A stretch of DNA of 64,000 bases from positions 5,540 through 69,539 of the forward strand of contig CACWWC010000009.1 in NCBI GenBank assembly GCA_902764545.1, read 5' to 3'. The position numbers and the translations under genes were made by a program. The stretch is from an uncultured Erysipelotrichaceae bacterium. Lineage in GTDB: Bacteria > Bacillota_I > Bacilli_A > RF39 > UBA660. Below, one piece after another: positions 14,625-46,554 of this stretch (within the stretch, counting starts at the first letter, position 1; every line of letters starts with the position of its first letter). The notes beneath the pieces are model-generated. The model was given only the letters and a program-made list of their open reading frames with translations, did no database searches and had not been told where the DNA came from.

Positions 14625-14780
14625 TCCAGTTTATTTTTAGTAATGATATATTTTTTGTTATAATATTGATTTTATTTTTTGTAATATATCTTTCGAATAA
14701 CTTATCCGTAGTAGCATCCGCCGAATTTTCGATTAACTACTAACCTCGTCAACTCTTAATAGTTCTGGCGCTTAACAATT
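14625..14780 (-). ncRNA. glmS ribozyme (GlcN6P-responsive self-cleaving riboswitch) in the glmS 5' UTR
   Basis: Minus-strand RNA AAGCGCCAGAACU…GACGAGG…UUAAUCGAAAAUUCGGCGGAUGC matches the conserved glmS ribozyme core. It lies directly upstream of glmS. The region is locally GC-richer. Confidence 0.75.
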
Positions 14781-14844
14781 ATTACAACCTTTCTTATAAT
14801 TGTTATATAATAATTATACATAAAATTAAAAAAGATGACAAATT

Positions 14845-27704: not shown

Positions 27705-28961
27705 TTATTTTTGATTTTTTTGCTGATCAAGAAAATTAGTTAAATATTCTAATTCTTCTTCTGATAACTCCCTTTTTGATGGGTATAATGAAGTTTCTTC
27801 GTAATTTTTAATATCTATTTTTTTGTTATCATTTATGTCTAAAAATATTTTTAAAATATACGTTAATTTATCAATACTCCATAAAACTTCTCTTTTTAAT
27901 TGTTTATTAAATTGATCTTTGTTAAGTCTTATCATGGTTTTTTTGGCTTTTTCGTATGCAAATTTATATTTTTCATCTTCTTTTGAATAACCTTCTTTTA
28001 ATAGAAGGCTATTGGCTTCCCACTCTTCTGATGAAAATTCTCCTAAATAATTATCATCAAAGTCAATAGATAATTTTTCTACTTCTTTTCTCATTAATTC
28101 AAGTTTACTTATGAATCTTCTTGCAACGTCTGGATATAGTTCTACAATACATTTAATATTCTTTCTTATGTTTCCAGTATGAAAATAGCCATATTTGTCA
28201 AAGATTGATCCATTTTGTGCCTTATTTATGAAGTTCATATAATTCTCTTCATATGATAAGCCTTCCTTATACTTAAATACAGGGCTCATTCCACTATCAT
28301 ATGATGAGAATTTGCTTGTATGATAATTAGGTTCATCAATATGCATAAACATTTCAGAGAACTCTGTATCAATAATTGGGGCTACTCTTTCAAATTTATT
28401 ATCTTTTTTTATTAAAGAAACATTTTCATAATGATAATTATCATCTCTTCTTAATATTGAACATAATATTTGTTCTGCTAACTGTTCTCCTAAATCTTTT
28501 CTTTCTGTAAAAAATGTACTTTTTAAAATATTTTCATAATCATATTGAACTTCACAATAATTAATGTAATCGTTTATATCAACAAGAGAATCAGGATACT
28601 TTCTAAATAGTTCTAATAGATTAACTAATTCTTCACCATCTTGTAATATATTTTCAACAATTGTTCCTTTTTCATAGTATTTTGGTTGTTCCTGCGATAA
28701 GTTTTTACATGTTGCGAGAGTATATTGGGGATTTTTTTTATCAATATACTTTTTTAATAAATATGACCAGTATACCTCACTGTATGCAAATAATGGTGTT
28801 GAATATGGTTTTGTTTTGGATAATGGTTTAAATATCATTTCTTTACCATCTACTTCAAATACTGGAAAGTATTTAGTACTAGATACAACACCACTTGATT
28901 TGCTTTCTAAATTTCGTTTTTTATTTTCTATCTCAAATTTTTCAATATTAAAAATCCCCAT
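27705..28961 (-). CDS. hypothetical protein (418 aa)
   Basis: ORF track, no recognisable motif. Confidence 0.5.
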   Translation of the reverse strand: MGIFNIEKFEIENKKRNLESKSSGVVSSTKYFPVFEVDGKEMIFKPLSKTKPYSTPLFAYSEVYWSYLLKKYIDKKNPQYTLATCKNLSQEQPKYYEKGTIVENILQDGEELVNLLELFRKYPDSLVDINDYINYCEVQYDYENILKSTFFTERKDLGEQLAEQILCSILRRDDNYHYENVSLIKKDNKFERVAPIIDTEFSEMFMHIDEPNYHTSKFSSYDSGMSPVFKYKEGLSYEENYMNFINKAQNGSIFDKYGYFHTGNIRKNIKCIVELYPDVARRFISKLELMRKEVEKLSIDFDDNYLGEFSSEEWEANSLLLKEGYSKEDEKYKFAYEKAKKTMIRLNKDQFNKQLKREVLWSIDKLTYILKIFLDINDNKKIDIKNYEETSLYPSKRELSEEELEYLTNFLDQQKNQK

Positions 28962-32246: not shown

Positions 32247-32275
32247 AAAAAAAGCCATTATATTGGCTTTTTTTA
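32247..32275 (-). terminator. rho-independent terminator (GCCA-TTATAT-TGGC with T-run)
   Basis: Hairpin immediately after the stop of the 520-aa gene. Confidence 0.5.
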
Positions 32276-33835
32276 ATTAATATTAGCATTTATATTATTA
32301 ATTATATTATTTGTTTCTTGAAAGGCTATGTAATCACCATTATTTTTCCATTCACTATATTGTGTAGAATTCCACTCATCAAAACTTATCCATTCTCCAT
32401 CGTAATAAGTTCTTGTTGCATAGAAGTAATAATTTGAACTATTGTAATTTGATGTATAGAATGTTAAATCACAATATTGTGGTACATCCATATCTGAAGT
32501 TTGTTCTTGATCTTGACCTCTATTAAGTATCATCTTATCAAATTGATTTCTATTGAACTTAAATTGTACCGCTGAGCCTCCTGCAGATTCCGTAATAGAA
32601 CTTCCTGGCCAAGATCCATTGTTATTACCTGTTGCATTATTCCATAAATAATATTTTAAATTATGTTTATCTATGGTAAAAAATCTTACTTCATTTGAAT
32701 TGGCTCTATTAGGATAAATTTTAGGTACAAATATTTTTCCCCAATCATTTGATGTGAATTCTAGGTCTATGGTTTGTTTTCTTTTTATGTCATCATTTAA
32801 CCAAGTAATACTTGATTCTTTTCCATTAGTGAATATTATGTCAGTATAGTTTTCTAGGTATGATTCATTTATGGTATATTTGTATATATTTCTTTCATCA
32901 ATCTTAGTCATATCAATACCTGGCCAGACCATATATGCTGTTTCACTTGTTTTATTATATAAATACATTTTCACTGTGTAGTCTGATTCACTATCATCTT
33001 TATACCAATCTGGTGGCATTTGGAAATATATATTGTAGTTTTGATTATACTTTGCGTATAAAGTAATGTCTCCTGTTTTATTATTTAAGTTTGTTACTTT
33101 GTTGCCGCTGAATGTTGAATCTTCATACCAACCTACAAATGTTGCGTTTGTTTTGCTAGCATCTAGTATTTCAACAGTTTCTCCTTCTGCATAATATGTT
33201 GGCTGATTTTCTGCTTGAACTCCGCCGTTTAGTTCATACGTGATGTTATATAGTCTTGTAAATTTAAATTTAATTGTACCTGTTAAATTTCCATCTGTGA
33301 ATGTTTCATTATTATATTTATATTTTACAATGATATTTTTTGAGGATTTTTCTTCTATCAAATCTCCTATTCCAGTTGATGTATCATCAGTAATAACTTC
33401 TGGTACTATATCAGTGTTAGTATAGGCCCCAAGCTCCTCGTTTCCTGTTGTATCATATATAATTCCATCAAATCTATATTTAACATTATCAGTGTTTTTT
33501 ATTTCTACATTTAAAGATACTTCAGAGTCTTTATCTGCCAATATTATTTCGTTAGTTAATAATGTTTCAACATAATGATTAACTTTATATGAGGAATTTT
33601 CGCTCATACTTTCTAGTTTGACATCAGTTATTATTACACCGTCTTGTAAATCAAGTTCTAAATGCCCGTTTGCATATAAATTATATGTTGTTTGAGCAAA
33701 CGCTATTGTTGTAAATAGTAATCCTATAAAAACTATTGCAATTATTTTTGGTGATACCACTGTATTTCTTTTTCTTCTAATTTTTTTCAAATTATCACTC
33801 TCCTGTGTATGGTTCTGATGTAGCTTGAATTTCAA
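32273..33835 (-). CDS. secreted Asn/Tyr-rich protein (520 aa); last gene of the SipW-like operon
   Basis: Signal-like N-terminus …IAIVFIGLLFTTIAFAQTTYNLYANG resembles those of the small paralogs. Overlaps the upstream gene by 41 nt. Confidence 0.55.
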   Translation of the reverse strand: MKFKLHQNHTQESDNLKKIRRKRNTVVSPKIIAIVFIGLLFTTIAFAQTTYNLYANGHLELDLQDGVIITDVKLESMSENSSYKVNHYVETLLTNEIILADKDSEVSLNVEIKNTDNVKYRFDGIIYDTTGNEELGAYTNTDIVPEVITDDTSTGIGDLIEEKSSKNIIVKYKYNNETFTDGNLTGTIKFKFTRLYNITYELNGGVQAENQPTYYAEGETVEILDASKTNATFVGWYEDSTFSGNKVTNLNNKTGDITLYAKYNQNYNIYFQMPPDWYKDDSESDYTVKMYLYNKTSETAYMVWPGIDMTKIDERNIYKYTINESYLENYTDIIFTNGKESSITWLNDDIKRKQTIDLEFTSNDWGKIFVPKIYPNRANSNEVRFFTIDKHNLKYYLWNNATGNNNGSWPGSSITESAGGSAVQFKFNRNQFDKMILNRGQDQEQTSDMDVPQYCDLTFYTSNYNSSNYYFYATRTYYDGEWISFDEWNSTQYSEWKNNGDYIAFQETNNIINNINANIN

Positions 33836-34349
33836 TAGTTACGTCAGCACTTTTTTTACTGTCTGTTGGAACTTTTATAACTTTTCCTTTTATTGTAATG
33901 GTTGCATTTTTTCCAGGAGCTAATGTAGTTGTGTCATTTCCTTCTTCATCTTTTGTAATTTCCTCAACTTCAAAATATTCTGAATCACACGTTACATTTA
34001 TATTGAAATTAGCCGAAAAGTAGTTACTTTCATTTGCTATTGTATACTTTACTACTGCAGTATCTCCATATCCTTTCATACCCGTTACAGTAAACGATGC
34101 AGTTCTATTTGTTACATCATTACTGTCTAAATTTGCATCGATTGTCATATGACTTGGTTGATTTTCTGGGACTTCGACATCAACAAATTTTACTTTAAAA
34201 TCATCTGCAGATTTTATTCCTGTTGCACGGGCAGTTCCATTAATATTTAAAGTGATATTATTTATTTTAGCATATCCTATTGTTGCTATAGCAATAAGTA
34301 ATAATACTAATGTTAGTAGAAACATTTTATTATTAATTTTTTTTCTCAT
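33795..34349 (-). CDS. small secreted beta-rich protein B (184 aa), TasA/CalY-like candidate, paralog of 36854-37387
   Basis: Start set at MRKKINNK (GAAGGTGA RBS). Signal …LLLIAIATIGYAKINNITLNINGTARA parallels GIGYATINSIPLIINGTATA of the paralog. Confidence 0.55.
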   Translation of the reverse strand: MRKKINNKMFLLTLVLLLIAIATIGYAKINNITLNINGTARATGIKSADDFKVKFVDVEVPENQPSHMTIDANLDSNDVTNRTASFTVTGMKGYGDTAVVKYTIANESNYFSANFNINVTCDSEYFEVEEITKDEEGNDTTTLAPGKNATITIKGKVIKVPTDSKKSADVTIEIQATSEPYTGE

Positions 34350-34400
34350 TTTATCACCTTCTATAATGGAATAAATAGACATTTTTATAATGCCTATTAA

Positions 34401-35669
34401 TTATTTTTTAAATTTATATTCAGCTGTCTTATCTAATTGTTCATAAAGATCTTCATCAGAATTTTTAGTACCCATGATGGCATTTTTATCATCTAGAATT
34501 TCTATTTCTGTTGTATTTTTTATATCTTCATTTATTTTATCGATTGTATAGAATTTTTGTACAGGTCTTTGGTTGGTAATGTCTCTTGCATCGTAATCTG
34601 GAGCTTTTGTCCCCCTAATTTCTGATTCAATATCTACTACTCTAATTGCGTATGTATAAATTACCCCGTCTTCTACAGGAATAAGGAAATATGTTCCAGT
34701 TTTTTCTTTGTTTTCAAGCATTAGTAGTGGTTTTTCTGATGATTCTTTGATTTCAATCATATCTTGAAAACTTTCTACCTTACATATTTGTGATGCACCT
34801 AATGGGTAATCTCCGCTTATTTTTTGAATATATGAGTCATATGCTAGAGTTATTTTTTTAATTCTATTTTCATAAATATCTTGTACTGTTCTAGTTTTCT
34901 TAATATATCTATTAATTAAAACAAACATAACTATTGAACATATTATAAATATTATTCCTGTTATTAATATTAAAATATAATTTTTATCAGGTTTTACTAG
35001 TATTCTACTATCGTTTGAATTAAGAGATGTTCCACTTATATCAACATTAACTGTTTTTGTGGTTAATGGTATTGTAATACTACTTTTAGCATTACTAATT
35101 TTAGATAAATCTATATTCTGATGTGTATTTAGATTTCTGACATTAACATCCATTGATACTTTTAATGTATTTGTTGTTTGTGATAAATCATAAGTACTAA
35201 TAAAACTGCTTAACAAATTATTATATTTATTATAATCAATATCAATATTATAATTTATATTCATTCCATTTTTAGTTATTTTATCTTCTGATGTATATAA
35301 TACTTCATTTTTTGTAAATAAAACTTTATCATTGTCACCATCTGTTACATTAAATTCAGCAATTATTCTATAATTATATGAATACTCAATTCCACTTTGA
35401 AGATCTAACTTATAATTAAAGTTTGCAGGTATATAATCAATTAATGATGCAACATATTGATTACCTCTTTCAATGCACTTAGATTCATAGAAATTATTGT
35501 CTTTTAAACATACACTATAATTAACATTACTATCTTCTTGATAATTAATGTAGTGTCCATTACTTAGTATTTTAAACATTAACAGCGAAAATACACCTAC
35601 TACTAAAAGAATTGTAGGCAATAAGTATAAATTTTTAATATTGATTTTTTCTTTTTTATTATGATTCAT
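34401..35669 (-). CDS. two-TM membrane protein (422 aa) with an extracellular Asn-rich domain and a cytoplasmic C-terminal domain
   Basis: TM at residues ~15-35 and ~232-254. Sits between the peptidase gene and secreted protein B. Confidence 0.5.
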   Translation of the reverse strand: MNHNKKEKINIKNLYLLPTILLVVGVFSLLMFKILSNGHYINYQEDSNVNYSVCLKDNNFYESKCIERGNQYVASLIDYIPANFNYKLDLQSGIEYSYNYRIIAEFNVTDGDNDKVLFTKNEVLYTSEDKITKNGMNINYNIDIDYNKYNNLLSSFISTYDLSQTTNTLKVSMDVNVRNLNTHQNIDLSKISNAKSSITIPLTTKTVNVDISGTSLNSNDSRILVKPDKNYILILITGIIFIICSIVMFVLINRYIKKTRTVQDIYENRIKKITLAYDSYIQKISGDYPLGASQICKVESFQDMIEIKESSEKPLLMLENKEKTGTYFLIPVEDGVIYTYAIRVVDIESEIRGTKAPDYDARDITNQRPVQKFYTIDKINEDIKNTTEIEILDDKNAIMGTKNSDEDLYEQLDKTAEYKFKK

Positions 35670-35672
35670 AAT

Positions 35673-36812
35673 TTAACCTCTCTTTACTCTTTCAAAAAAC
35701 TCATTAATCCATATCGTTGGTTGTCCAATTTTTGCTATTTTTAATTTAACTTTTCCTTTGAATGTTTTTCTTGTAACATATCCTGAATCCTGTTGTATAT
35801 TATTGTCACCTTTTGTATATAATCTTATTTCATCATTTATATCTTCTATTTTTACCACTCTATGAACAATAATTTTTGTATTGGTTGAATATAAAATGAT
35901 ATCCCCTTTTTTTATATCTTTTATATCTTTTGAATTTTTATAAATTATTGCATCTCCTTTATCAAGTGTTCCTGTCATCGAGCCTGAGCCTATCACTAGC
36001 ATTCCATATGTAAATTTGCATGATATTAACATTGCGACTATTGCCATTATTACAATACTTATTATTGTTGAGGCCGCTTTTAATTTTCGATTATGTACTG
36101 TTATTACTTTTTTATCTTTTTCATATACACTCTTTAAAACAATATATATTAATAATGGATAAAGCATTCTACATACTGATTTGAAATATATGTATACATC
36201 AGGAGTAAATGGTATTATATATAAATATATTGTTGTAATAATCCTGTAAATGATATTGGGTACAATCCCAAATTCTTCTGATATATAGTTGAAAAGGATG
36301 TTTGATACAATTGATGCAAAAAATATATAGCCTATTGCTTCTAAAAATTCATTTAAATTGAATATATTGTAAATATTAACATACATTACTAAATCAACTA
36401 GTACAGTAAAGATTAGTGTATTTATTCTTGAAGCATTTGTCTTTTCAGATAAAAATTCATTTCTAATTATTTCAGATGTAATTATTATCAATATTGAAGG
36501 AATAATATAATTTATTATTGTATGAATTCCAAATTTGTAGGCCGACACATAATAACCCACATATATTCCAATTACATAATATAGTACAACATATAGAATA
36601 GCAAATATGGTCATATATTTTGTAATATCTTTTTTATATATTGAGGATTGGTGTGTTCTACTAATTATCTTTCTTGTGATAAATGCATATAGGACTAAAA
36701 TTAATGCAATAAGCATTTTATTGGTTAAAACTTTTGATGTAATTAGAATACTTACAAAAAATATAATTATAAATAATTGTAATGCATATATTTTGTATAA
36801 CCCCTTTTTCAT
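35673..36812 (-). CDS. signal peptidase I, SipW-type (S26B), with a ~245-aa polytopic N-terminal extension
   Basis: The C-terminal 130 aa has GSGSMTGTLDKGD (catalytic Ser) and IIVHRVV (His) and is colinear with SipW/archaeal-type SPase I. It is preceded by 7-8 predicted TM helices of unknown function. Confidence 0.7.
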   Translation of the reverse strand: MKKGLYKIYALQLFIIIFFVSILITSKVLTNKMLIALILVLYAFITRKIISRTHQSSIYKKDITKYMTIFAILYVVLYYVIGIYVGYYVSAYKFGIHTIINYIIPSILIIITSEIIRNEFLSEKTNASRINTLIFTVLVDLVMYVNIYNIFNLNEFLEAIGYIFFASIVSNILFNYISEEFGIVPNIIYRIITTIYLYIIPFTPDVYIYFKSVCRMLYPLLIYIVLKSVYEKDKKVITVHNRKLKAASTIISIVIMAIVAMLISCKFTYGMLVIGSGSMTGTLDKGDAIIYKNSKDIKDIKKGDIILYSTNTKIIVHRVVKIEDINDEIRLYTKGDNNIQQDSGYVTRKTFKGKVKLKIAKIGQPTIWINEFFERVKRG

Positions 36813-36853
36813 AACTTTACTCCTTTTTATGTTTTATTAATTCACGGAGTTTA

Positions 36854-37387
36854 TTAATTTACTGGACTTGCTACTAATCTTGTTGTAATAATTGATTCTT
36901 GATTATTTTCTATTGGTGTTTTTACTACCTCAACTTCTATTGCAAGTGTTGTTGTTGCACCAGCATCCAATAATGTTTTATTTTGATTGTTAGCATCAGG
37001 TGTTCCAAACGTTCTAGTAACTTTGAAATACTCCGCATTTGTATTAGAAGTTCCATCATTTGAAATTTCTATTTCTGCATTTAATCCAGTTGATGAATTT
37101 GTAATATTGAAAATAATTATTGCTTTATCGCCTACTGCCGTTAAATCTTTTGTGGTAAAACTTGCACTTAAACCTTTTGAGATAGGTTCAGGATCAAGCA
37201 CAATATTTTGCGGTCCATCTTGATAACCATTAAATTCTACTTTAAAGTTGTTTTGATTTGGGGAAGCAGTTGCGGTACCATTTATAATTAATGGTATTGA
37301 ATTAATCGTGGCATAACCGATACCCAAAACAATTACAGCGATTAGTGCATATAATGCGATGGATAGACTTTTGCTTTTGTGATTCAC
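36854..37387 (-). CDS. small secreted beta-rich protein A (177 aa), TasA/CalY-like candidate
   Basis: GTG start with an AAAGGA RBS. Signal peptide …LGIGYATINSIPLIINGTATA. First gene of the operon. Confidence 0.55.
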   Translation of the reverse strand: MNHKSKSLSIALYALIAVIVLGIGYATINSIPLIINGTATASPNQNNFKVEFNGYQDGPQNIVLDPEPISKGLSASFTTKDLTAVGDKAIIIFNITNSSTGLNAEIEISNDGTSNTNAEYFKVTRTFGTPDANNQNKTLLDAGATTTLAIEVEVVKTPIENNQESIITTRLVASPVN

Positions 37388-37555
37388 CTTAAATCAATCC
37401 TTTCTCTCTATAATTATTTTTCCTATTATCTATTTAATGATACCAAATTTTATAATTTTTGTATATTATTTTTGAAATTTTTGTCGTAAAATTATACTTT
37501 TTGTTGAAGATTTGGATAATATACTCAATAATAATTGATTAAAGGAGTGGTAAGT

Positions 37556-37903
37556 ATGAAAAATAAAAATGCTTATGACAATAATAGAGATTTTATCAAC
37601 AAGATTTTTGATAGATCTGATAATCCGATTGAGGAATTAGAGAGGATTAATAGCGTTGTTCCAATATTTTTTATTGATGAGAATAACATAAACTATATTA
37701 ATGAAGGGTTAGATAAATATGGCTATGAAATCAATCCAAATTATATTTCTGATGTGAAATCACAGTGTCAAATGTATGGTTACCCTGCTTGTGGTGGTGG
37801 CGGTATAGGACATTCTTCTTGTTGTAGTTCACTAAATATTGATAAGCCGTTATTATTGGTAAAAAAGAATAATGGTGGTATTGAAAATGGAATTAGATAT
37901 TAA
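37556..37903 (+). CDS. Cys-rich small protein (115 aa); candidate precursor/partner of the adjacent radical SAM enzyme
   Basis: AAAGGAGTGG RBS. C-terminal QCQMYGYPACGGGGIGHSSCCSS cluster. The 3' end overlaps the radical SAM ORF by 32 nt in another frame. Confidence 0.45.
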   Translation: MKNKNAYDNNRDFINKIFDRSDNPIEELERINSVVPIFFIDENNINYINEGLDKYGYEINPNYISDVKSQCQMYGYPACGGGGIGHSSCCSSLNIDKPLLLVKKNNGGIENGIRY

Positions 37904-38363
37904 AGGAAAAAAATATAATATTAAACCCTATGCCTGTTCTCCCTGTGATGAATTTCCTTTTTATATAAATATTACTAATGTATGTAATGCAAAGTGTAGT
38001 TTTTGTTCTAACGCTTGTAATAAAGATTATGGTAAATTAGACTTAAATTACTTAGAGGAAATTTTAGAACAAATCAGCAATAATATAAGTAGATTCTCTA
38101 TTAGTGGTTGTGAAACACTATTATATCCAAATGATTTAGAAGATTTACTTAAATTATTACAAAAATATGATAGAAGAATAACTTTAAATACTAATGGTAG
38201 TTTTTTAAAAGAGAATGTTGAAATGCTAAATAAATATAATAATATTGAATCTATTCAGCTAAGTAGACATCATTACATCGATGAAAAAAATAATGAAGTA
38301 TTCAATATAGAGACTTTACCTTTTAGTGAATTGAATAAAAAAACTAACCTATTTCTTGATTAG
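37872..38363 (+). CDS. radical SAM protein, minimal activase-like (163 aa)
   Basis: CNAKCSFCSN is a CX3CX2C motif, followed by a SAM-binding-like ISGCETLL. No SPASM domain. Confidence 0.6.
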   Translation: MVVLKMELDIKGKKYNIKPYACSPCDEFPFYINITNVCNAKCSFCSNACNKDYGKLDLNYLEEILEQISNNISRFSISGCETLLYPNDLEDLLKLLQKYDRRITLNTNGSFLKENVEMLNKYNNIESIQLSRHHYIDEKNNEVFNIETLPFSELNKKTNLFLD

Positions 38364-38375
38364 TTATATAAAAAA

Positions 38376-38401
38376 GCTCGAAAAGTTTGAGCATATTTTT
38401 T
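38376..38401 (+). terminator. possible rho-independent terminator
   Basis: GCTCGAAA-AG-TTTGAGC imperfect hairpin plus a T6 run, 13 nt after the radical SAM stop. Confidence 0.35.
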
Positions 38402-38669
38402 ATGGAGCAGTTAAGTAACAGTTTACTCTCTTTCTAAAAATATTGCATATGAATTCTTATTAAATGTCAATGGGAGTATATGAAAAATCGTAAAATAATG
38501 TATAATATATTTTATAGATTATTTTACATTTAATTAAAAGGAGGAGGTAAAAATAGATAGATTAGAAGAAAACACAGTATATTTATATGCTGAATATAAA
38601 ATTAATGATGAAACAAAATGCCAAGTTATTCCTAGTGGTAACATTTCAGATTTAATATATGAAGAAGGA

Positions 38670-40151
38670 ATGAAAGAGGTATGTTTTAAAAATATTATAT
38701 ATGATGATGGTGTTTTAATAGATTGTACATTGAATAATTCAGGTACTTATTCTTTAGGTATTCCAGTAATATCTAAGGAATTTATAGAAATGTATGAAAA
38801 TAATGATTTACGAATTAAAAAAGGTAATACTATCAATGATGCATATGAATATTTTAAAGAGAATCATTTGATGGATGCTAATCTTATTATTATGCCAAAC
38901 AACCAAATAATTTTTAATCTTAATTCAAAATCAGTAATGCCAAAAATAAATGGTGAACCTATTTATATATCTAAATCAGATATTATTAAAGGAAATAATT
39001 ATTGGTATATTGAACTACATGAAGGTAATTCTGTAAAATATGAAAAAACTTACTTAGGGGATAAAAAATATAGAGGTCAAAAATGTGATTATTATTCTTT
39101 CGTTTTAGTAACAGAGTATCAAGTAGATGGTAAAGAAATGCATAAAATCATTCATAGAGATAAAACAAATTATTTGTATAGTGAGTATAATCCTAGTAAA
39201 TTAGACCTGATTATCGACCAAGCAAAAACATTATTGGAATCTCATGACTATAAATTTAAAGATTTTAGTGGAGTTACACCACTTTATAGATTTAATTCTG
39301 AAGATAGCGCATGTGTCTTTATGGATAATAAATCATTAATAACGGGACAAAATGTTGTTACAGTTACAGGAAGTGGTGATGCAATTTTAGATTTATTTAT
39401 GAATGGTGCAAAAAAAATAGTATCATTTGATATTAATTCTATGGCTGCATTTTGGGCAGAATTAAAATTTGTTGCTGCAAAATATCTAAATTATCAAGAT
39501 TATTTAAATTTAATTAATAATCTTAATTATGATATATATAGTAAGATAAGTTATTATTTAAACCCTAATACAAAAAAATTATGGGACGAATTATATAATT
39601 TTTGTGATTTAAGAGAAATAAGAATTGATGGAGAACAATCCAATTTGATATACCACACATCATTTTTAAGTTTTGATTATTCACAAGATAATCTTAATGG
39701 ATACTGCAATGAAGATAATTATTATAGATTACAAAAAATATTAAGTAACAAATCTATTAGTGATGTTAGTTTTGTTACATGTGATATATTTGATTTACCA
39801 AATTCAGCAGATTTAAGCAACTATTCATATGCTTATTTGTCAAATATAATGGATTTTCTTGTAGGTATTGACAAATTAGAAATTGACGAAAGTGCCGTAG
39901 AAAAATTTAAAGATTTTGTTTCTCAATCCTTATTACCATCAATGAAAGAAGATGCCAATATAGATTTGTGTTATATATCTGAAAATTGGCATTTAGGTAA
40001 ATCTAAAAAAATCTATTCTGAAAAATTTTCAGAATATGAAGGATATCGTAAGACACCTTTATCAAATACTAATTGTAAAGCTTGTGTATTATCATTTAGA
40101 TCATATCTAAGAAAAAATTATATACAAAGTACCAGTTCACATAAAAAATAA
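38670..40151 (+). CDS. hypothetical protein (493 aa), possibly with a Rossmann-like nucleotide/SAM-binding segment
   Basis: GGAGG RBS upstream. The VVTVTGSGDAILDLF segment resembles motif I of class I methyltransferases and DUF3419/BtaA-like proteins. Confidence 0.45.
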   Translation: MKEVCFKNIIYDDGVLIDCTLNNSGTYSLGIPVISKEFIEMYENNDLRIKKGNTINDAYEYFKENHLMDANLIIMPNNQIIFNLNSKSVMPKINGEPIYISKSDIIKGNNYWYIELHEGNSVKYEKTYLGDKKYRGQKCDYYSFVLVTEYQVDGKEMHKIIHRDKTNYLYSEYNPSKLDLIIDQAKTLLESHDYKFKDFSGVTPLYRFNSEDSACVFMDNKSLITGQNVVTVTGSGDAILDLFMNGAKKIVSFDINSMAAFWAELKFVAAKYLNYQDYLNLINNLNYDIYSKISYYLNPNTKKLWDELYNFCDLREIRIDGEQSNLIYHTSFLSFDYSQDNLNGYCNEDNYYRLQKILSNKSISDVSFVTCDIFDLPNSADLSNYSYAYLSNIMDFLVGIDKLEIDESAVEKFKDFVSQSLLPSMKEDANIDLCYISENWHLGKSKKIYSEKFSEYEGYRKTPLSNTNCKACVLSFRSYLRKNYIQSTSSHKK

Positions 40152-41132: not shown

Positions 41133-42050
41133 TTATTTTACTATTATAAAGTCTTTTAAATTTATTTTTGTGGGTTTCATATTTTCTTCGTTATTTGAAT
41201 ATTTAAATCCTGACAAATTAGTTACATACTCTTTTGAATCATAATCGAATGAGAAAGCCATAAAGTCTATCAAGTGATAAGAATCATAATACATAAATAT
41301 ATCGTATGTATTATTAGGTAAGCATGGTATTTTGCATGCTACAATATTATCTGAAGTAACTAGCAATTGACACCCTTCAATATTATTTAAATTTGTTATT
41401 GTATAATGTTTAGAATTTGAAATTATATTAGAAAATTGTGCTAGTTTTATAATATCTTCTTTAGTTAATAATTCTTTTAAAATAGAAATATTATTAAATC
41501 TTTTTTTAGGGTCAAACTTTTTAATTATTTCTTCATAACAATCTTCAATATTTTCGTCTGCATAATATTTAAAGAAAAATGGTATATTTAACAATGTGTC
41601 CAATAATTGCTTTTCTACACCTTCACACATAAGTGTATTTAAAAAACAATCGTATAATTTATAAACATAATCTATTACTTTTCTATCTGACTCAGTTACC
41701 GCAAAGAATGCTTCATTATTCTTATATGTATTCATAAAGATTTCAAAGTTTATAATTTCATTTCTAGATTTATTTATCGTAATGTTTATTTTGTTATTTC
41801 TATCAAATTCTTTTTTTGAAATAAATAGAGATATATTTTTTGAAGAAATGTGAGTAACTATTCCAACTAGTAATGCATCTCCTAAAATATTAAATACTAA
41901 AAAATCCAAATCGTTAAATCCACTAGTAAAAAATAATAAACCATTATAAGACAGTAAGGCAATAATTATGAAGGTTATTATTAAGCCTAATAAAATAATT
42001 TTATATTTATAAGTTTTCAATTTTTCTGTTTTTATTTCAAATATCACCAT
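41133..42050 (-). CDS. hypothetical membrane-anchored protein (305 aa)
   Basis: Two N-terminal TM helices, no recognisable domain. Located in the island-like region. Confidence 0.45.
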   Translation of the reverse strand: MVIFEIKTEKLKTYKYKIILLGLIITFIIIALLSYNGLLFFTSGFNDLDFLVFNILGDALLVGIVTHISSKNISLFISKKEFDRNNKINITINKSRNEIINFEIFMNTYKNNEAFFAVTESDRKVIDYVYKLYDCFLNTLMCEGVEKQLLDTLLNIPFFFKYYADENIEDCYEEIIKKFDPKKRFNNISILKELLTKEDIIKLAQFSNIISNSKHYTITNLNNIEGCQLLVTSDNIVACKIPCLPNNTYDIFMYYDSYHLIDFMAFSFDYDSKEYVTNLSGFKYSNNEENMKPTKINLKDFIIVK

Positions 42051-42319: not shown

Positions 42320-43624
42320 ATGATAGATGTAATTGAAGATGTAAGAAATGAATTTAAAGTTAAATTAACAGATAAGTTTGAAGAAGAAGTTATATCATTT
42401 TTGAATACTAATGGTGGTAATATCTACATTGGTGTTAATGATAAAGGTGATATTGTTGGAATAAATGGTAATATTGATTTATTACAAAGGACTATTAAGG
42501 ATAGAATAAAAGATAATATAATGCCATCAACATTAGGATTATATGATGTTGTTGTATTGGAAGAAAACAATAAAAAATATATTAAAATAATTATTGCTCG
42601 TGGTAGTGATGATCCATATTACATTAAAGGTATGGGAATGACACTAGATAGTTGCTTTATTAGAGTTGGTAGTTCAATACAAAGTATGCCTTATGATATG
42701 ATTAATAATAGAGTTAATAAAAGAACTAGGACATCATTAAGGAATATAGTATCCCCTAAACAAGATTTAACTTTTAGTCAATTAAAAATATATTATGAAG
42801 AAAAAGGTTTTAATATTAATAATAATTTTTTAAAGCAATTAGACTTATATACTGATGATGGTAAATATAATTATAATGCTTATTTACTTGCTGACAATAA
42901 TACAATATCTATTAGATTTGGAAAATATGAAGGAACAAATGCTGTTGATTTAATAGAAAATGAAGATTTTGGTAATTGTTCTATTGTTAAAGCAACAAAG
43001 AATATTTTAAATAAGATAGAAATAGAAAATAGGATATTTACAAAAATAGAATACCCTGAAAGAAAAGAAATTAAAATGTATGATTTTGCCGCAGTAAGAG
43101 AAGCAGTTGTTAATGCAATTGTACATAATGATTGGTCTAACGAATATGCTCCAAAATTTGAAATGTTTAGTGATAAATTAGTAATATCATCAAATGGTGG
43201 TATTCAACCATCTACTACAAAAGAAGAATTTTTAGAGGGATATTCATTACCTAAAAATAAAGAACTAATGAAAGTATTTAATGATTTAGATTTAGTTGAA
43301 CAAATGGGTACAGGTATAATAAGAATACTTCAAAGTTATGATAAAAAATCATTTGAATTTTTTCCTAATTTTATTAGAGTTACATTTCCATTTAATAAAG
43401 ATAAATTTAGAGAAGAAGCAAAAGAAATTACCGAATTAACTGAAACTCAAAAATCTATTATTAATTTAATGTTAGATTCACCAACTATTACACAAGAGGT
43501 GTTGTCAAAACTATTAGGTGTTAATATTAGAACTATTCAAAGAAATATAAAAACACTTATTGAAATGGGATTAATTGAAAGAACTGGTGCTACTAAAAAA
43601 GGTGAATGGATAGTAAAAAAATAA
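42320..43624 (+). CDS. AlbA_2/Schlafen-like putative ATP-dependent DNA-binding regulator with a C-terminal winged HTH
   Basis: N-terminal …EEVISFLNTNGGNIYIGVNDKGDIVGI is the AlbA_2 (divergent AAA-4) signature. A HATPase_c_4-like middle region. The C-terminal TQEVLSKLLGVNIRTIQRNIKTLIEMGLIER is a wHTH. Confidence 0.6.
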   Translation: MIDVIEDVRNEFKVKLTDKFEEEVISFLNTNGGNIYIGVNDKGDIVGINGNIDLLQRTIKDRIKDNIMPSTLGLYDVVVLEENNKKYIKIIIARGSDDPYYIKGMGMTLDSCFIRVGSSIQSMPYDMINNRVNKRTRTSLRNIVSPKQDLTFSQLKIYYEEKGFNINNNFLKQLDLYTDDGKYNYNAYLLADNNTISIRFGKYEGTNAVDLIENEDFGNCSIVKATKNILNKIEIENRIFTKIEYPERKEIKMYDFAAVREAVVNAIVHNDWSNEYAPKFEMFSDKLVISSNGGIQPSTTKEEFLEGYSLPKNKELMKVFNDLDLVEQMGTGIIRILQSYDKKSFEFFPNFIRVTFPFNKDKFREEAKEITELTETQKSIINLMLDSPTITQEVLSKLLGVNIRTIQRNIKTLIEMGLIERTGATKKGEWIVKK

Positions 43625-46480: not shown

Positions 46481-46554
46481 TGGAGCGGATGATGGGAATC
46501 GAACCCACGTAGTCAGCTTGGAAGGCTGAGGTTCTACCATTAAACTACATCCGC
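46481..46554 (-). tRNA. tRNA-Gly (anticodon UCC), CCA encoded
   Basis: Minus strand GCGGATGTAGTTTAATGGTAGAACCTCAGCCTTCCAAGCTGACTACGTGGGTTCGATTCCCATCATCCGCTCCA. Cloverleaf with a CUUCCAA anticodon loop. Confidence 0.9.

Follow-up and report, generated by a model that had tools for sequence, protein, structure and literature searches.

Why should a signal peptidase carry eight membrane helices in addition to its own membrane anchor? The question is raised by a gene on contig CACWWC010000009.1 (NCBI GenBank assembly GCA_902764545.1) of an uncultured Erysipelotrichaceae bacterium, of which a stretch of 64,000 nucleotides was analysed (the window, to which all positions refer). The open reading frame (ORF) at 35673..36812 on the minus strand encodes 379 amino acids without an internal stop codon. 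An earlier note on this DNA, made from the letters alone, described the product as a SipW-like signal peptidase fused to a polytopic N-terminal domain, and the fusion proved to be real: the C-terminal part matches the TIGR02228 model, and 226 full-length homologues could be aligned. It is well supported that this signal peptidase is dedicated to a five-gene fibre operon of the TasA/AbpX/Tafi-like kind. For the explanation as a whole, in which this dedicated peptidase uses its N-terminal domain (N-domain) for docking the signal anchor of the fibre subunits or for scaffolding, we estimate a probability of roughly one half. Donor-strand fibres of the TasA, AbpX and Tafi types are emerging as a widespread route to biofilm matrix and pili in bacteria and archaea. 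Little of their processing and assembly at the membrane has been explained so far, and the locus bears on that question.

The peptidase domain

Residues 248-363 are a Ser-His signal peptidase I of the endoplasmic reticulum (ER)/archaeal type (S26B; Sec11/SipW-like). TIGR02228 covers this segment with 81.1 bits (cut-off 51.85), and Pfam Peptidase_S26 covers residues 250-320 with 31 bits (cut-off 22.9). When the full-length AlphaFold2 (AF2) model was compared to known structures with Foldseek, human SEC11C and SEC11A ranked first (7p2q_A and 7p2p_A, target template-modelling (TM) scores of 0.70 and 0.65, 24-28% identity). The extracytoplasmic catalytic domain is encoded at 35724..36014 (minus strand), and the catalytic residues are where the earlier note had placed them, at the C-terminal end of the protein with the Ser in GSGSM (S278, codon 35979-35981) and the His in VHRV (H317, codon 35862-35864). 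The TKGDNN box supplies D336 and D342. Conservation was counted here and below in an alignment of 226 distinct full-length homologues with 25-100% identity to the query. Ser278 and His317 are each present in 225 of these sequences, Asp336 in 224 and Asp342 in all 226. SipW in the strict sense was considered and rejected, since the protein scores 50.7 bits with the SipW equivalog model NF046067, which has a cut-off of 190; the peptidase is therefore no SipW orthologue.

The start of the reading frame is marked by a Shine-Dalgarno sequence, AGGAG at 36820..36824 (minus strand), which can be read off the sequence with a 7-nucleotide spacer to the ATG at 36812 and is a strong ribosome-binding site of the peptidase gene. 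The gene upstream ends 41 nucleotides before the peptidase ORF, and the gene downstream begins 3 nucleotides past the peptidase stop codon.

An eight-helix domain preceding the membrane anchor

The note had counted 7-8 transmembrane helices of no recognisable family in front of the peptidase, which agrees with the present results: AF2 predicts eight helices, seven segments stand out as clearly hydrophobic in a hydropathy scan, and Pfam gives no match for this part of the protein even at E≤10. The eight-helix domain comprises residues 1-231 (36120..36812, minus strand), as delimited by the AF2 model and by conservation among the homologues. Modelled on its own, it reaches a predicted local distance difference test score (pLDDT) of 82.7 and a predicted TM score (pTM) of 0.82, with helices at residues 5-24, 32-49, 60-85, 96-121, 126-148, 153-181, 184-199 and 208-231. 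The full-length model (pLDDT 76.8, pTM 0.62) adds a positively charged linker, predicted to be cytoplasmic (residues 232-240), and a ninth transmembrane helix (residues 241-265), together encoded at 36015..36119 (minus strand), as well as a C-terminal amphipathic helix of residues 364-378, which with the stop codon occupies 35673..35723 (minus strand; sequence QPTIWINEFFERVKRG). The latter is too highly charged and too short for a full membrane span. The hydropathy peak is found at residues 247-265, and in the model helix 241-265 would be the membrane anchor of the signal peptidase itself. It ends with a conserved motif L-I-S-C-K-F; among the 226 homologues, 220 retain S264, 192 retain C265 and 220 retain F267.

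Clusters of Lys and Arg are found at the N-terminus and around residues 47-64, 117-129 and 228-245. Positive charge is concentrated in alternate loops and in the segment 232-245 that includes the linker, consistent with a cytoplasmic N-terminus and a catalytic domain on the outside. Because of this clustering, and because the catalytic domain must be extracellular, the predicted topology has the N-terminus inside, nine membrane spans and the catalytic domain outside.

The NCBIfam search of the full protein recognised the peptidase part only, a profile of the N-domain found nothing among PDB sequences at E≤10, tblastn against plasmids gave no match, and no structure in the PDB reached E≤0.001 when the N-domain model was used as Foldseek query.

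The domain is under strong constraint, nearly matching that on the catalytic domain: in an alignment of 26 sequences mean pairwise identity is 48% for the N-domain and 54% for the catalytic domain, with 38% for the anchor and 25% for the linker. Two residues, E114 (225/226) and R117 (223/226), equal the catalytic Ser278 and His317 in invariance. Further conserved positions are G82 (223/226), P105 (223), P219 (222), D/E140 (222), R/K190 (223), N171 (207) and N/H/Q175 (203), and P201 and P204 are likewise nearly invariant. According to the model, these residues would fall in two sets. E114, R117, N171, N175 and R190 are placed in the inner-leaflet half of the membrane, whereas Y74, Y79, G82, P105, the motif Y198-x-x-P201-x-x-P204-D/N and P219 would form a set in the outer half, which is also the side of the active site of the peptidase.

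A Cys-Arg pair (KSVCRML) that had been assigned to a loop, on the other hand, lies inside predicted helix 8 (residues 208-231). Its Cys214 is found in just 39 of the 226 homologues, and the position of Arg215 is basic (R or K) in 197. Exosortases and archaeosortases, rhomboids and the CPBP family had been suggested for comparison, and the signatures of all three are absent. Exosortase/archaeosortase was rejected in view of the poor conservation of Cys214, the absence of a conserved His and the lack of a Pfam or NCBIfam match; rhomboid, which has a GxSG Ser and a His in separate helices, was rejected as residues 1-240 contain no invariant Ser or His, Pfam gave no match, and no rhomboid occurs among the 50 structural matches listed. 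The comparison with CPBP proteins, also negative at the level of profile-profile alignment, is described below with the Rce1 fold.

Distribution of the fusion

With the full protein as query, a sequence search gave 616 proteins, of which the best 120 have 344-387 amino acids (nearly all of them 371-381), with 87-100% coverage of the query and 40-100% identity. More than 120 homologues of 371-387 amino acids align from residue 1. With a profile of the N-domain, 957 clusters (at 50% identity) were found among 1.84 billion representatives, 144 of them at E≤1e-30; the best 150 of the 957 are essentially all fusions of 364-384 amino acids or obvious fragments of these. Orthologous fusions in related genomes, a point the earlier note had left for checking, are indeed present: at least 80 species-level genomes carry the peptidase, belonging to uncultured Erysipelotrichaceae-like bacteria, other Bacilli and Clostridia from rumen and gut.

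The closest homologue in the collection of species genomes (69% identity) is on a contig, L001, of a metagenome-assembled genome of an uncultured rumen Erysipelotrichaceae bacterium. Synteny between the two contigs extends past the operon, with a TypA/BipA homologue that is 95% identical and genes for an acyl-CoA synthetase, a HAD hydrolase and a VTT-domain protein at 71-78%.

Six matches to the N-domain profile, 241-254 amino acids long, appeared to be stand-alone domains. Two of these (P0139 and P0184) were traced and turned out to be split genes on contigs of 1.6-2.1 kb. On the 2.1-kb contig (L081, 1229-2139) a peptidase homologue is broken after a run of A in the linker and the rest is in another frame; the second piece would begin within the anchor helix. 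On the 1.6-kb contig (L082, 336-1621) the homologue is split near the linker, with the rest in two further short ORFs. Both splits look like sequencing errors or decayed genes, and they give rise to apparently stand-alone N-domain proteins of about 250 amino acids in databases.

Candidate fibre subunits and the operon

The gene upstream of the peptidase gene (36854..37387, minus strand) encodes a secreted protein of 177 amino acids that is the candidate major fibre subunit. It has a signal peptide (MNHKSKSLSIALYALIAVIVLGIGYA) followed by an amphipathic strand (TINSIPLIINGTATA), and the mature protein has an isoelectric point (pI) of 4.4. In an alignment of the subunit family (A3) a G-Y-A motif is invariant or nearly so, and behind it a strand with the pattern A-[IV]-[ST]-x-[IV]-x-L-x-I-x-G is found. 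The signals are uniform: a Lys-rich N-terminus is followed by an h-region, taken as the stretch from the last charged position to the Gly of G-Y-A with both ends left out, that measures 15-17 residues in 28 of 28 sequences, and then by G-Y-A. Such a fixed length suggests a recognition step in which the length of the h-region is measured. The 28 mature subunits have 139-189 amino acids, a median pI of 4.4 and a median Asp plus Glu content of 11%.

Alignment of the subunit family with AbpX of P. abyssi, a fibre protein of solved structure the sequence of which was taken from the supplement of bioRxiv 10.64898/2026.01.04.697558, brought signal and donor strand into register (hhalign, E 4e-4, probability 35%, for that region only), with IGLTYA/QWSETLSLS opposite GIGYA/AISxxxLxI. 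In the mature subunits I or V stands at position 2 and a non-acidic residue at position 4, so that the aromatic amino acid found at position 2 of AbpX and its acidic one at position 4 are absent. Pfam gave just weak immunoglobulin-like matches for the 28 subunit members.

Downstream of the peptidase gene lies the gene for a DUF5305 protein of 422 amino acids (34401..35669, minus strand; PF17231, 46.7 bits, cut-off 29) with two membrane spans at about residues 14-34 and 232-250. In 76 of 77 loci the peptidase gene is directly followed by a DUF5305 gene with the same orientation. Judging from the 3-nucleotide gap it is translationally coupled to the peptidase gene, and by analogy with related loci (see below) the protein is proposed to be an accessory subunit of the signal peptidase. 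It is followed by a gene for a second small protein (33795..34382, minus strand) which aligns with the subunit family in A3 and may be a minor subunit. It probably starts at the ATG at 34349 (MRKKINNK...), and its signal ends with IGYA, after which the sequence continues with KINNITLNINGTARA. The last gene (32273..33835, minus strand) encodes a secreted protein of 520 amino acids with Listeria-Bacteroides repeats (PF09479, 50.9 bits; TIGR02543) and a signal ending in ...TTIAFA, a candidate tip protein or adhesin.

The operon thus reads subunit, peptidase, DUF5305 protein, second subunit and repeat protein, all on the minus strand, and is flanked by housekeeping or unrelated genes. Elsewhere, 52 of 80 loci have a gene for a homologous small secreted protein directly upstream of the peptidase gene, 34 of 80 have a second copy, and in 16 of 80 a Listeria-Bacteroides-repeat protein is encoded downstream. 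The gene content matches that of donor-strand fibre loci of the TasA/AbpX/Tafi type. Among uncultured Firmicutes of gut and rumen, a large clade has such loci in a compact, five-gene version, and the peptidase there always carries the eight-helix domain, which is undescribed in databases. A scan of the operon for promoters and terminators was uninformative, with 63 sites against 51.5 expected in DNA of 26.6% G+C, a very low value that is also that of the window.

Comparison with known fibre systems and signal peptidases

The closest parallel is offered by the AbpX loci of bacteria and archaea, described in January 2026, in which the signal peptidase I has ten transmembrane helices instead of two (bioRxiv 10.64898/2026.01.04.697558). 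Also encoded there are minor subunits resembling AbpX, tip proteins and a DUF5305 protein proposed as accessory of the peptidase; the fibres are calcium-dependent, and the subunits have a pI of about 4 and about 15% Asp/Glu. Published AbpX-locus peptidases include A0A1M6GRN4, A0A2R7Y7S8 and WP_338249487.1 (bioRxiv 10.64898/2026.01.04.697558). The present locus shares with them a TIGR02228-type signal peptidase I of about ten helices (here eight, the anchor and the short C-terminal one) in the same layout, the membrane domains being compared by description only. Small subunits, a DUF5305 protein and a larger tip-like protein are also encoded at both kinds of locus, and Bacillota are among the hosts. 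The present locus differs in its hosts, which are uncultured Bacilli and Clostridia from gut and rumen, and in its subunits, which match AbpX over the signal/strand region only. The preprint gives the ten-helix peptidase one sentence, without conserved residues or function (bioRxiv 10.64898/2026.01.04.697558). The architecture as such has therefore already been noted, and the multi-helix peptidase is no new principle, whereas the conserved residues, the fold and a function of the domain are not yet proposed there. In our literature search TIGR02228 or a multi-helix SipW-type enzyme was mentioned nowhere beyond this preprint and the paper on Tat fimbriae.

That paper, on the Tafi system of Haloarcula hispanica, provides what we consider, by analogy, the best experimental precedent for the proposed role: deletion of tafD blocks both processing of the subunit TafA and fibre formation (PMC11821415). 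The peptidase TafD pairs with a DUF5305 protein, TafG, to which it is occasionally fused, and an accessory role of DUF5305 was proposed there as well (PMC11821415). Both systems thus have a dedicated signal peptidase I and a DUF5305 protein in a donor-strand fibre locus. TafD itself has four helices, with an N-terminal catalytic domain and an extra C-terminal extracellular domain, and acts on substrates of the twin-arginine translocation (Tat) pathway (PMC11821415); the eight-helix N-domain of the present enzyme is not found in TafD.

Similar to SipW of B. subtilis, which processes TasA and TapA, the enzyme is an ER/archaeal-type Ser-His peptidase encoded beside the fibre subunits that it would process. 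SipW is a protein of about 190 amino acids with two membrane helices, and neither the eight-helix domain nor the DUF5305 partner is found with it. The signal of TasA ends with G-T-W-A, position -2 being aromatic and position -1 Ala, compared to G-Y-A in the subunits described here. The best structural match of the catalytic domain, SEC11A/SEC11C (PDB 7P2P, 7P2Q), belongs to the human signal peptidase complex, a multi-subunit enzyme with additional helices that shape the membrane surrounding its active site. In the human complex these helices are contributed by the separate subunits SPC12, SPC25 and SPC22/23, unlike the present peptidase, where the extra helices are fused to the catalytic chain. 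A signal-peptidase fold in the service of pilus assembly is also known from SipA of Streptococcus pyogenes (PDB 4N31; structural match with E 7e-4). SipA is needed for pilus polymerisation but lacks the catalytic residues and is a chaperone for sortase-built pili, whereas the catalytic residues are intact in the peptidase described here.

Proposed role of the N-domain

We propose the following mechanism. The acidic subunits would be exported with their uniform signal anchor, consisting of the Lys-rich N-terminus, 15-17 hydrophobic residues and G-Y-A. Outside the membrane the Sec11/SipW-type domain (Ser278/His317/Asp336/Asp342) would cleave after G-Y-A, the probable cleavage site, liberating the amphipathic N-terminal strand, which may then insert in a neighbouring subunit; fibres would thus form by donor-strand complementation. 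The eight-helix domain is envisaged as a permanently attached membrane platform that, together with the DUF5305 protein, would dock and orient the signal anchor of the subunit. The inner-leaflet cluster of Glu114, Arg117, Asn171, Asn175 and Arg190 would be located at the level of the Lys-rich end of the signal peptide, and the conserved residues of the outer half would be on the active-site side. The platform may also retain the basal subunit while the fibre grows. A coupled role in substrate handling, as the earlier note had suggested, is reasonable since the fusion is conserved and the N-domain is strongly constrained. For the second processing or tethering step that the note gave as an example, the sole hints are a weak fold match to Rce1, described below, and the invariant Glu/Arg site predicted for the inner leaflet.

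Several points weigh against this explanation. No match of the subunits to TasA or to a fibre protein of solved structure was found in phmmer and profile searches of the PDB, and their match to AbpX is limited to the signal/strand region at the 35% probability given above. Confidence in the full-length model is moderate and is low around residues 235-270, so that the packing of the two domains is uncertain; contact of the N-domain with the signal peptide is a proposal only. Other fibre systems use peptidases with two or four helices (bioRxiv 10.64898/2026.01.04.697558; PMC11821415), and since they manage with these, docking by a large domain is not obligatory. Finally, the Glu/Arg pair, being buried and invariant, would suit a site of catalysis or transport better than a passive scaffold. 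The same pair is a concrete and cheap target for mutation, by which coupling of signal cleavage to substrate docking, to clearance of the signal peptide or to polymerisation could be told apart. If the domain should be catalytic, or should couple cleavage to polymerisation, its interest would rise substantially.

Possible relation to the Rce1 fold and alternative functions

A catalytic role is the content of the first alternative, in which the N-domain would provide a second active site: as a divergent intramembrane hydrolase of Rce1/CPBP-like kind, using the invariant Glu114, it would cut the same substrate again. Examples of such an activity would be a built-in signal-peptide peptidase that degrades the released peptide, or trimming of the cytoplasmic end of the anchor. 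The idea draws on the structural comparison, in which the CAAX protease Rce1 (4cad) gave the top two Foldseek matches of the N-domain (E 0.17-0.28, probability 0.80-0.89, TM score 0.41-0.42), the best PDB match having a probability of 0.89. The next TM scores (0.34 each) belong to 7tm3 chain 6 and 5a63 chain C, which we take to be TMEM147 and APH-1; these are the sole others above 0.3 among the matches listed, and the remaining ones (rhodopsins, transporters, receptors) do not exceed 0.26. Rce1 has eight helices, both termini in the cytoplasm, and the conserved Glu and Arg of its motif in helix 4. The N-domain is likewise predicted to have eight helices and cytoplasmic ends, and E114 and R117, also in helix 4, presumably occupy the corresponding position. 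Moreover E114, R117, D/E140, N171, N/H175 and R/K190 are conserved like the catalytic residues of the peptidase and lie in the predicted inner-leaflet half of the helices.

Against this alternative, the TM scores are below 0.5, no Foldseek match reaches E≤0.001, and PF02517 is not matched at E≤10. The CPBP motifs EExxxR, FxxxH and HxxxN/D are absent. The N-domain shows only S-E-x-x-R (E114 and R117), with ExxR in place of EExxxR in the first motif, and N171-x-x-x-N/H175; among the 226 homologues it has no conserved His, so that both His of CPBP motifs 2 and 3 are lacking. Comparison by hhalign with six CPBP core fragments, a thin alignment, gave a probability of 0.06%; with the 226-sequence N-domain alignment against 83 full-length PF02517 proteins it was 0.45% (E 0.13), and the motifs were not aligned with each other. 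A motif search in 1,423 ORFs of the window and the loci did not find a CPBP protein. APH-1 and TMEM147 are non-catalytic relatives sharing the Rce1 fold, so the fold also serves as scaffold. Membership of the CPBP family is not supported by these sequence comparisons, a distant Rce1/APH-1-like fold is possible from the predicted structure, and the fold match together with the shared features of Rce1 is to be regarded as a lead, not a result. A second active site in the N-domain is, in our judgement, unlikely.

A more specific form of the same idea would make the protein a two-step machine. Its membrane part would be an Rce1-like bundle in which Glu114, Arg117, Asp140 and Asn171 replace the Glu/His/His/Asn set; the outer site would free the donor strand and the inner one would cut or release the anchor. 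If true, a single enzyme would control both fibre growth and release from the membrane. We rate this version as quite unlikely.

It could also be argued that the N-domain has an unrelated, merely co-expressed membrane function, for example as a small transporter or ion channel (such as for supply of calcium) or as a lipid-handling enzyme. A compact eight-helix bundle with buried invariant residues (E114, R117, D/E140, N171) is what many transporters possess, AbpX fibres need calcium (bioRxiv 10.64898/2026.01.04.697558), and a linker of just 25% identity is expected of two separable modules. Against this, the best 150 of the 957 profile matches have the domain only in fusion with the peptidase and in no convincing case by itself or joined to something else, and the two stand-alone matches of about 250 amino acids that were traced are the frameshift-split genes mentioned above. 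No transporter or enzyme family was matched in Pfam or NCBIfam, and the transporters and rhodopsins among the Foldseek matches stay at TM scores of 0.26 or lower. Because the fusion is strictly kept across two bacterial classes, the function of the domain is better tied to cleavage, and an independent activity seems distinctly improbable. That the long N-terminal region is an annotation artefact, due to a real start codon further downstream or to a sequencing error joining two genes, as the earlier note had considered, can be set aside as having a negligible chance: the split homologues in L081 and L082 might be taken to favour it, but their breaks point to sequencing error or decay, the ORF has a strong ribosome-binding site and no in-frame stop, and the homologues align from residue 1 at full length. 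The reading of the N-domain as a docking platform or scaffold of the dedicated fibre peptidase is the one we prefer.

Other features of the window

Divergently from the fibre operon, a cluster on the plus strand (37535-40151) starts with an ORF of 122 amino acids that is Cys- and Gly-rich in its C-terminal part (...YPACGGGGIGHSSCCSS...). This is followed by an ORF of 163 amino acids for a radical-SAM protein (PF04055, 57.8 bits) with an early stop at 38363, then come about 300 nucleotides without a plus-strand ORF of 25 or more amino acids, and finally a gene for a DUF3419 protein of 493 amino acids. The region may be a decayed gene cluster for a modified peptide.

The Rfam search of the window gave no match besides a glmS ribozyme/riboswitch (71.4 bits, 14635-14783, minus strand) and a tRNA gene (71.7 bits, 46484-46554, minus strand). 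Pfam matched neither the 305-amino-acid ORF at 41133-42050 nor the 418-amino-acid ORF at 27705-28961, both on the minus strand. The gene at 42320-43624 (plus strand) encodes a protein of 434 amino acids that combines Schlafen AlbA_2, HATPase_c_4 and winged-helix domains.

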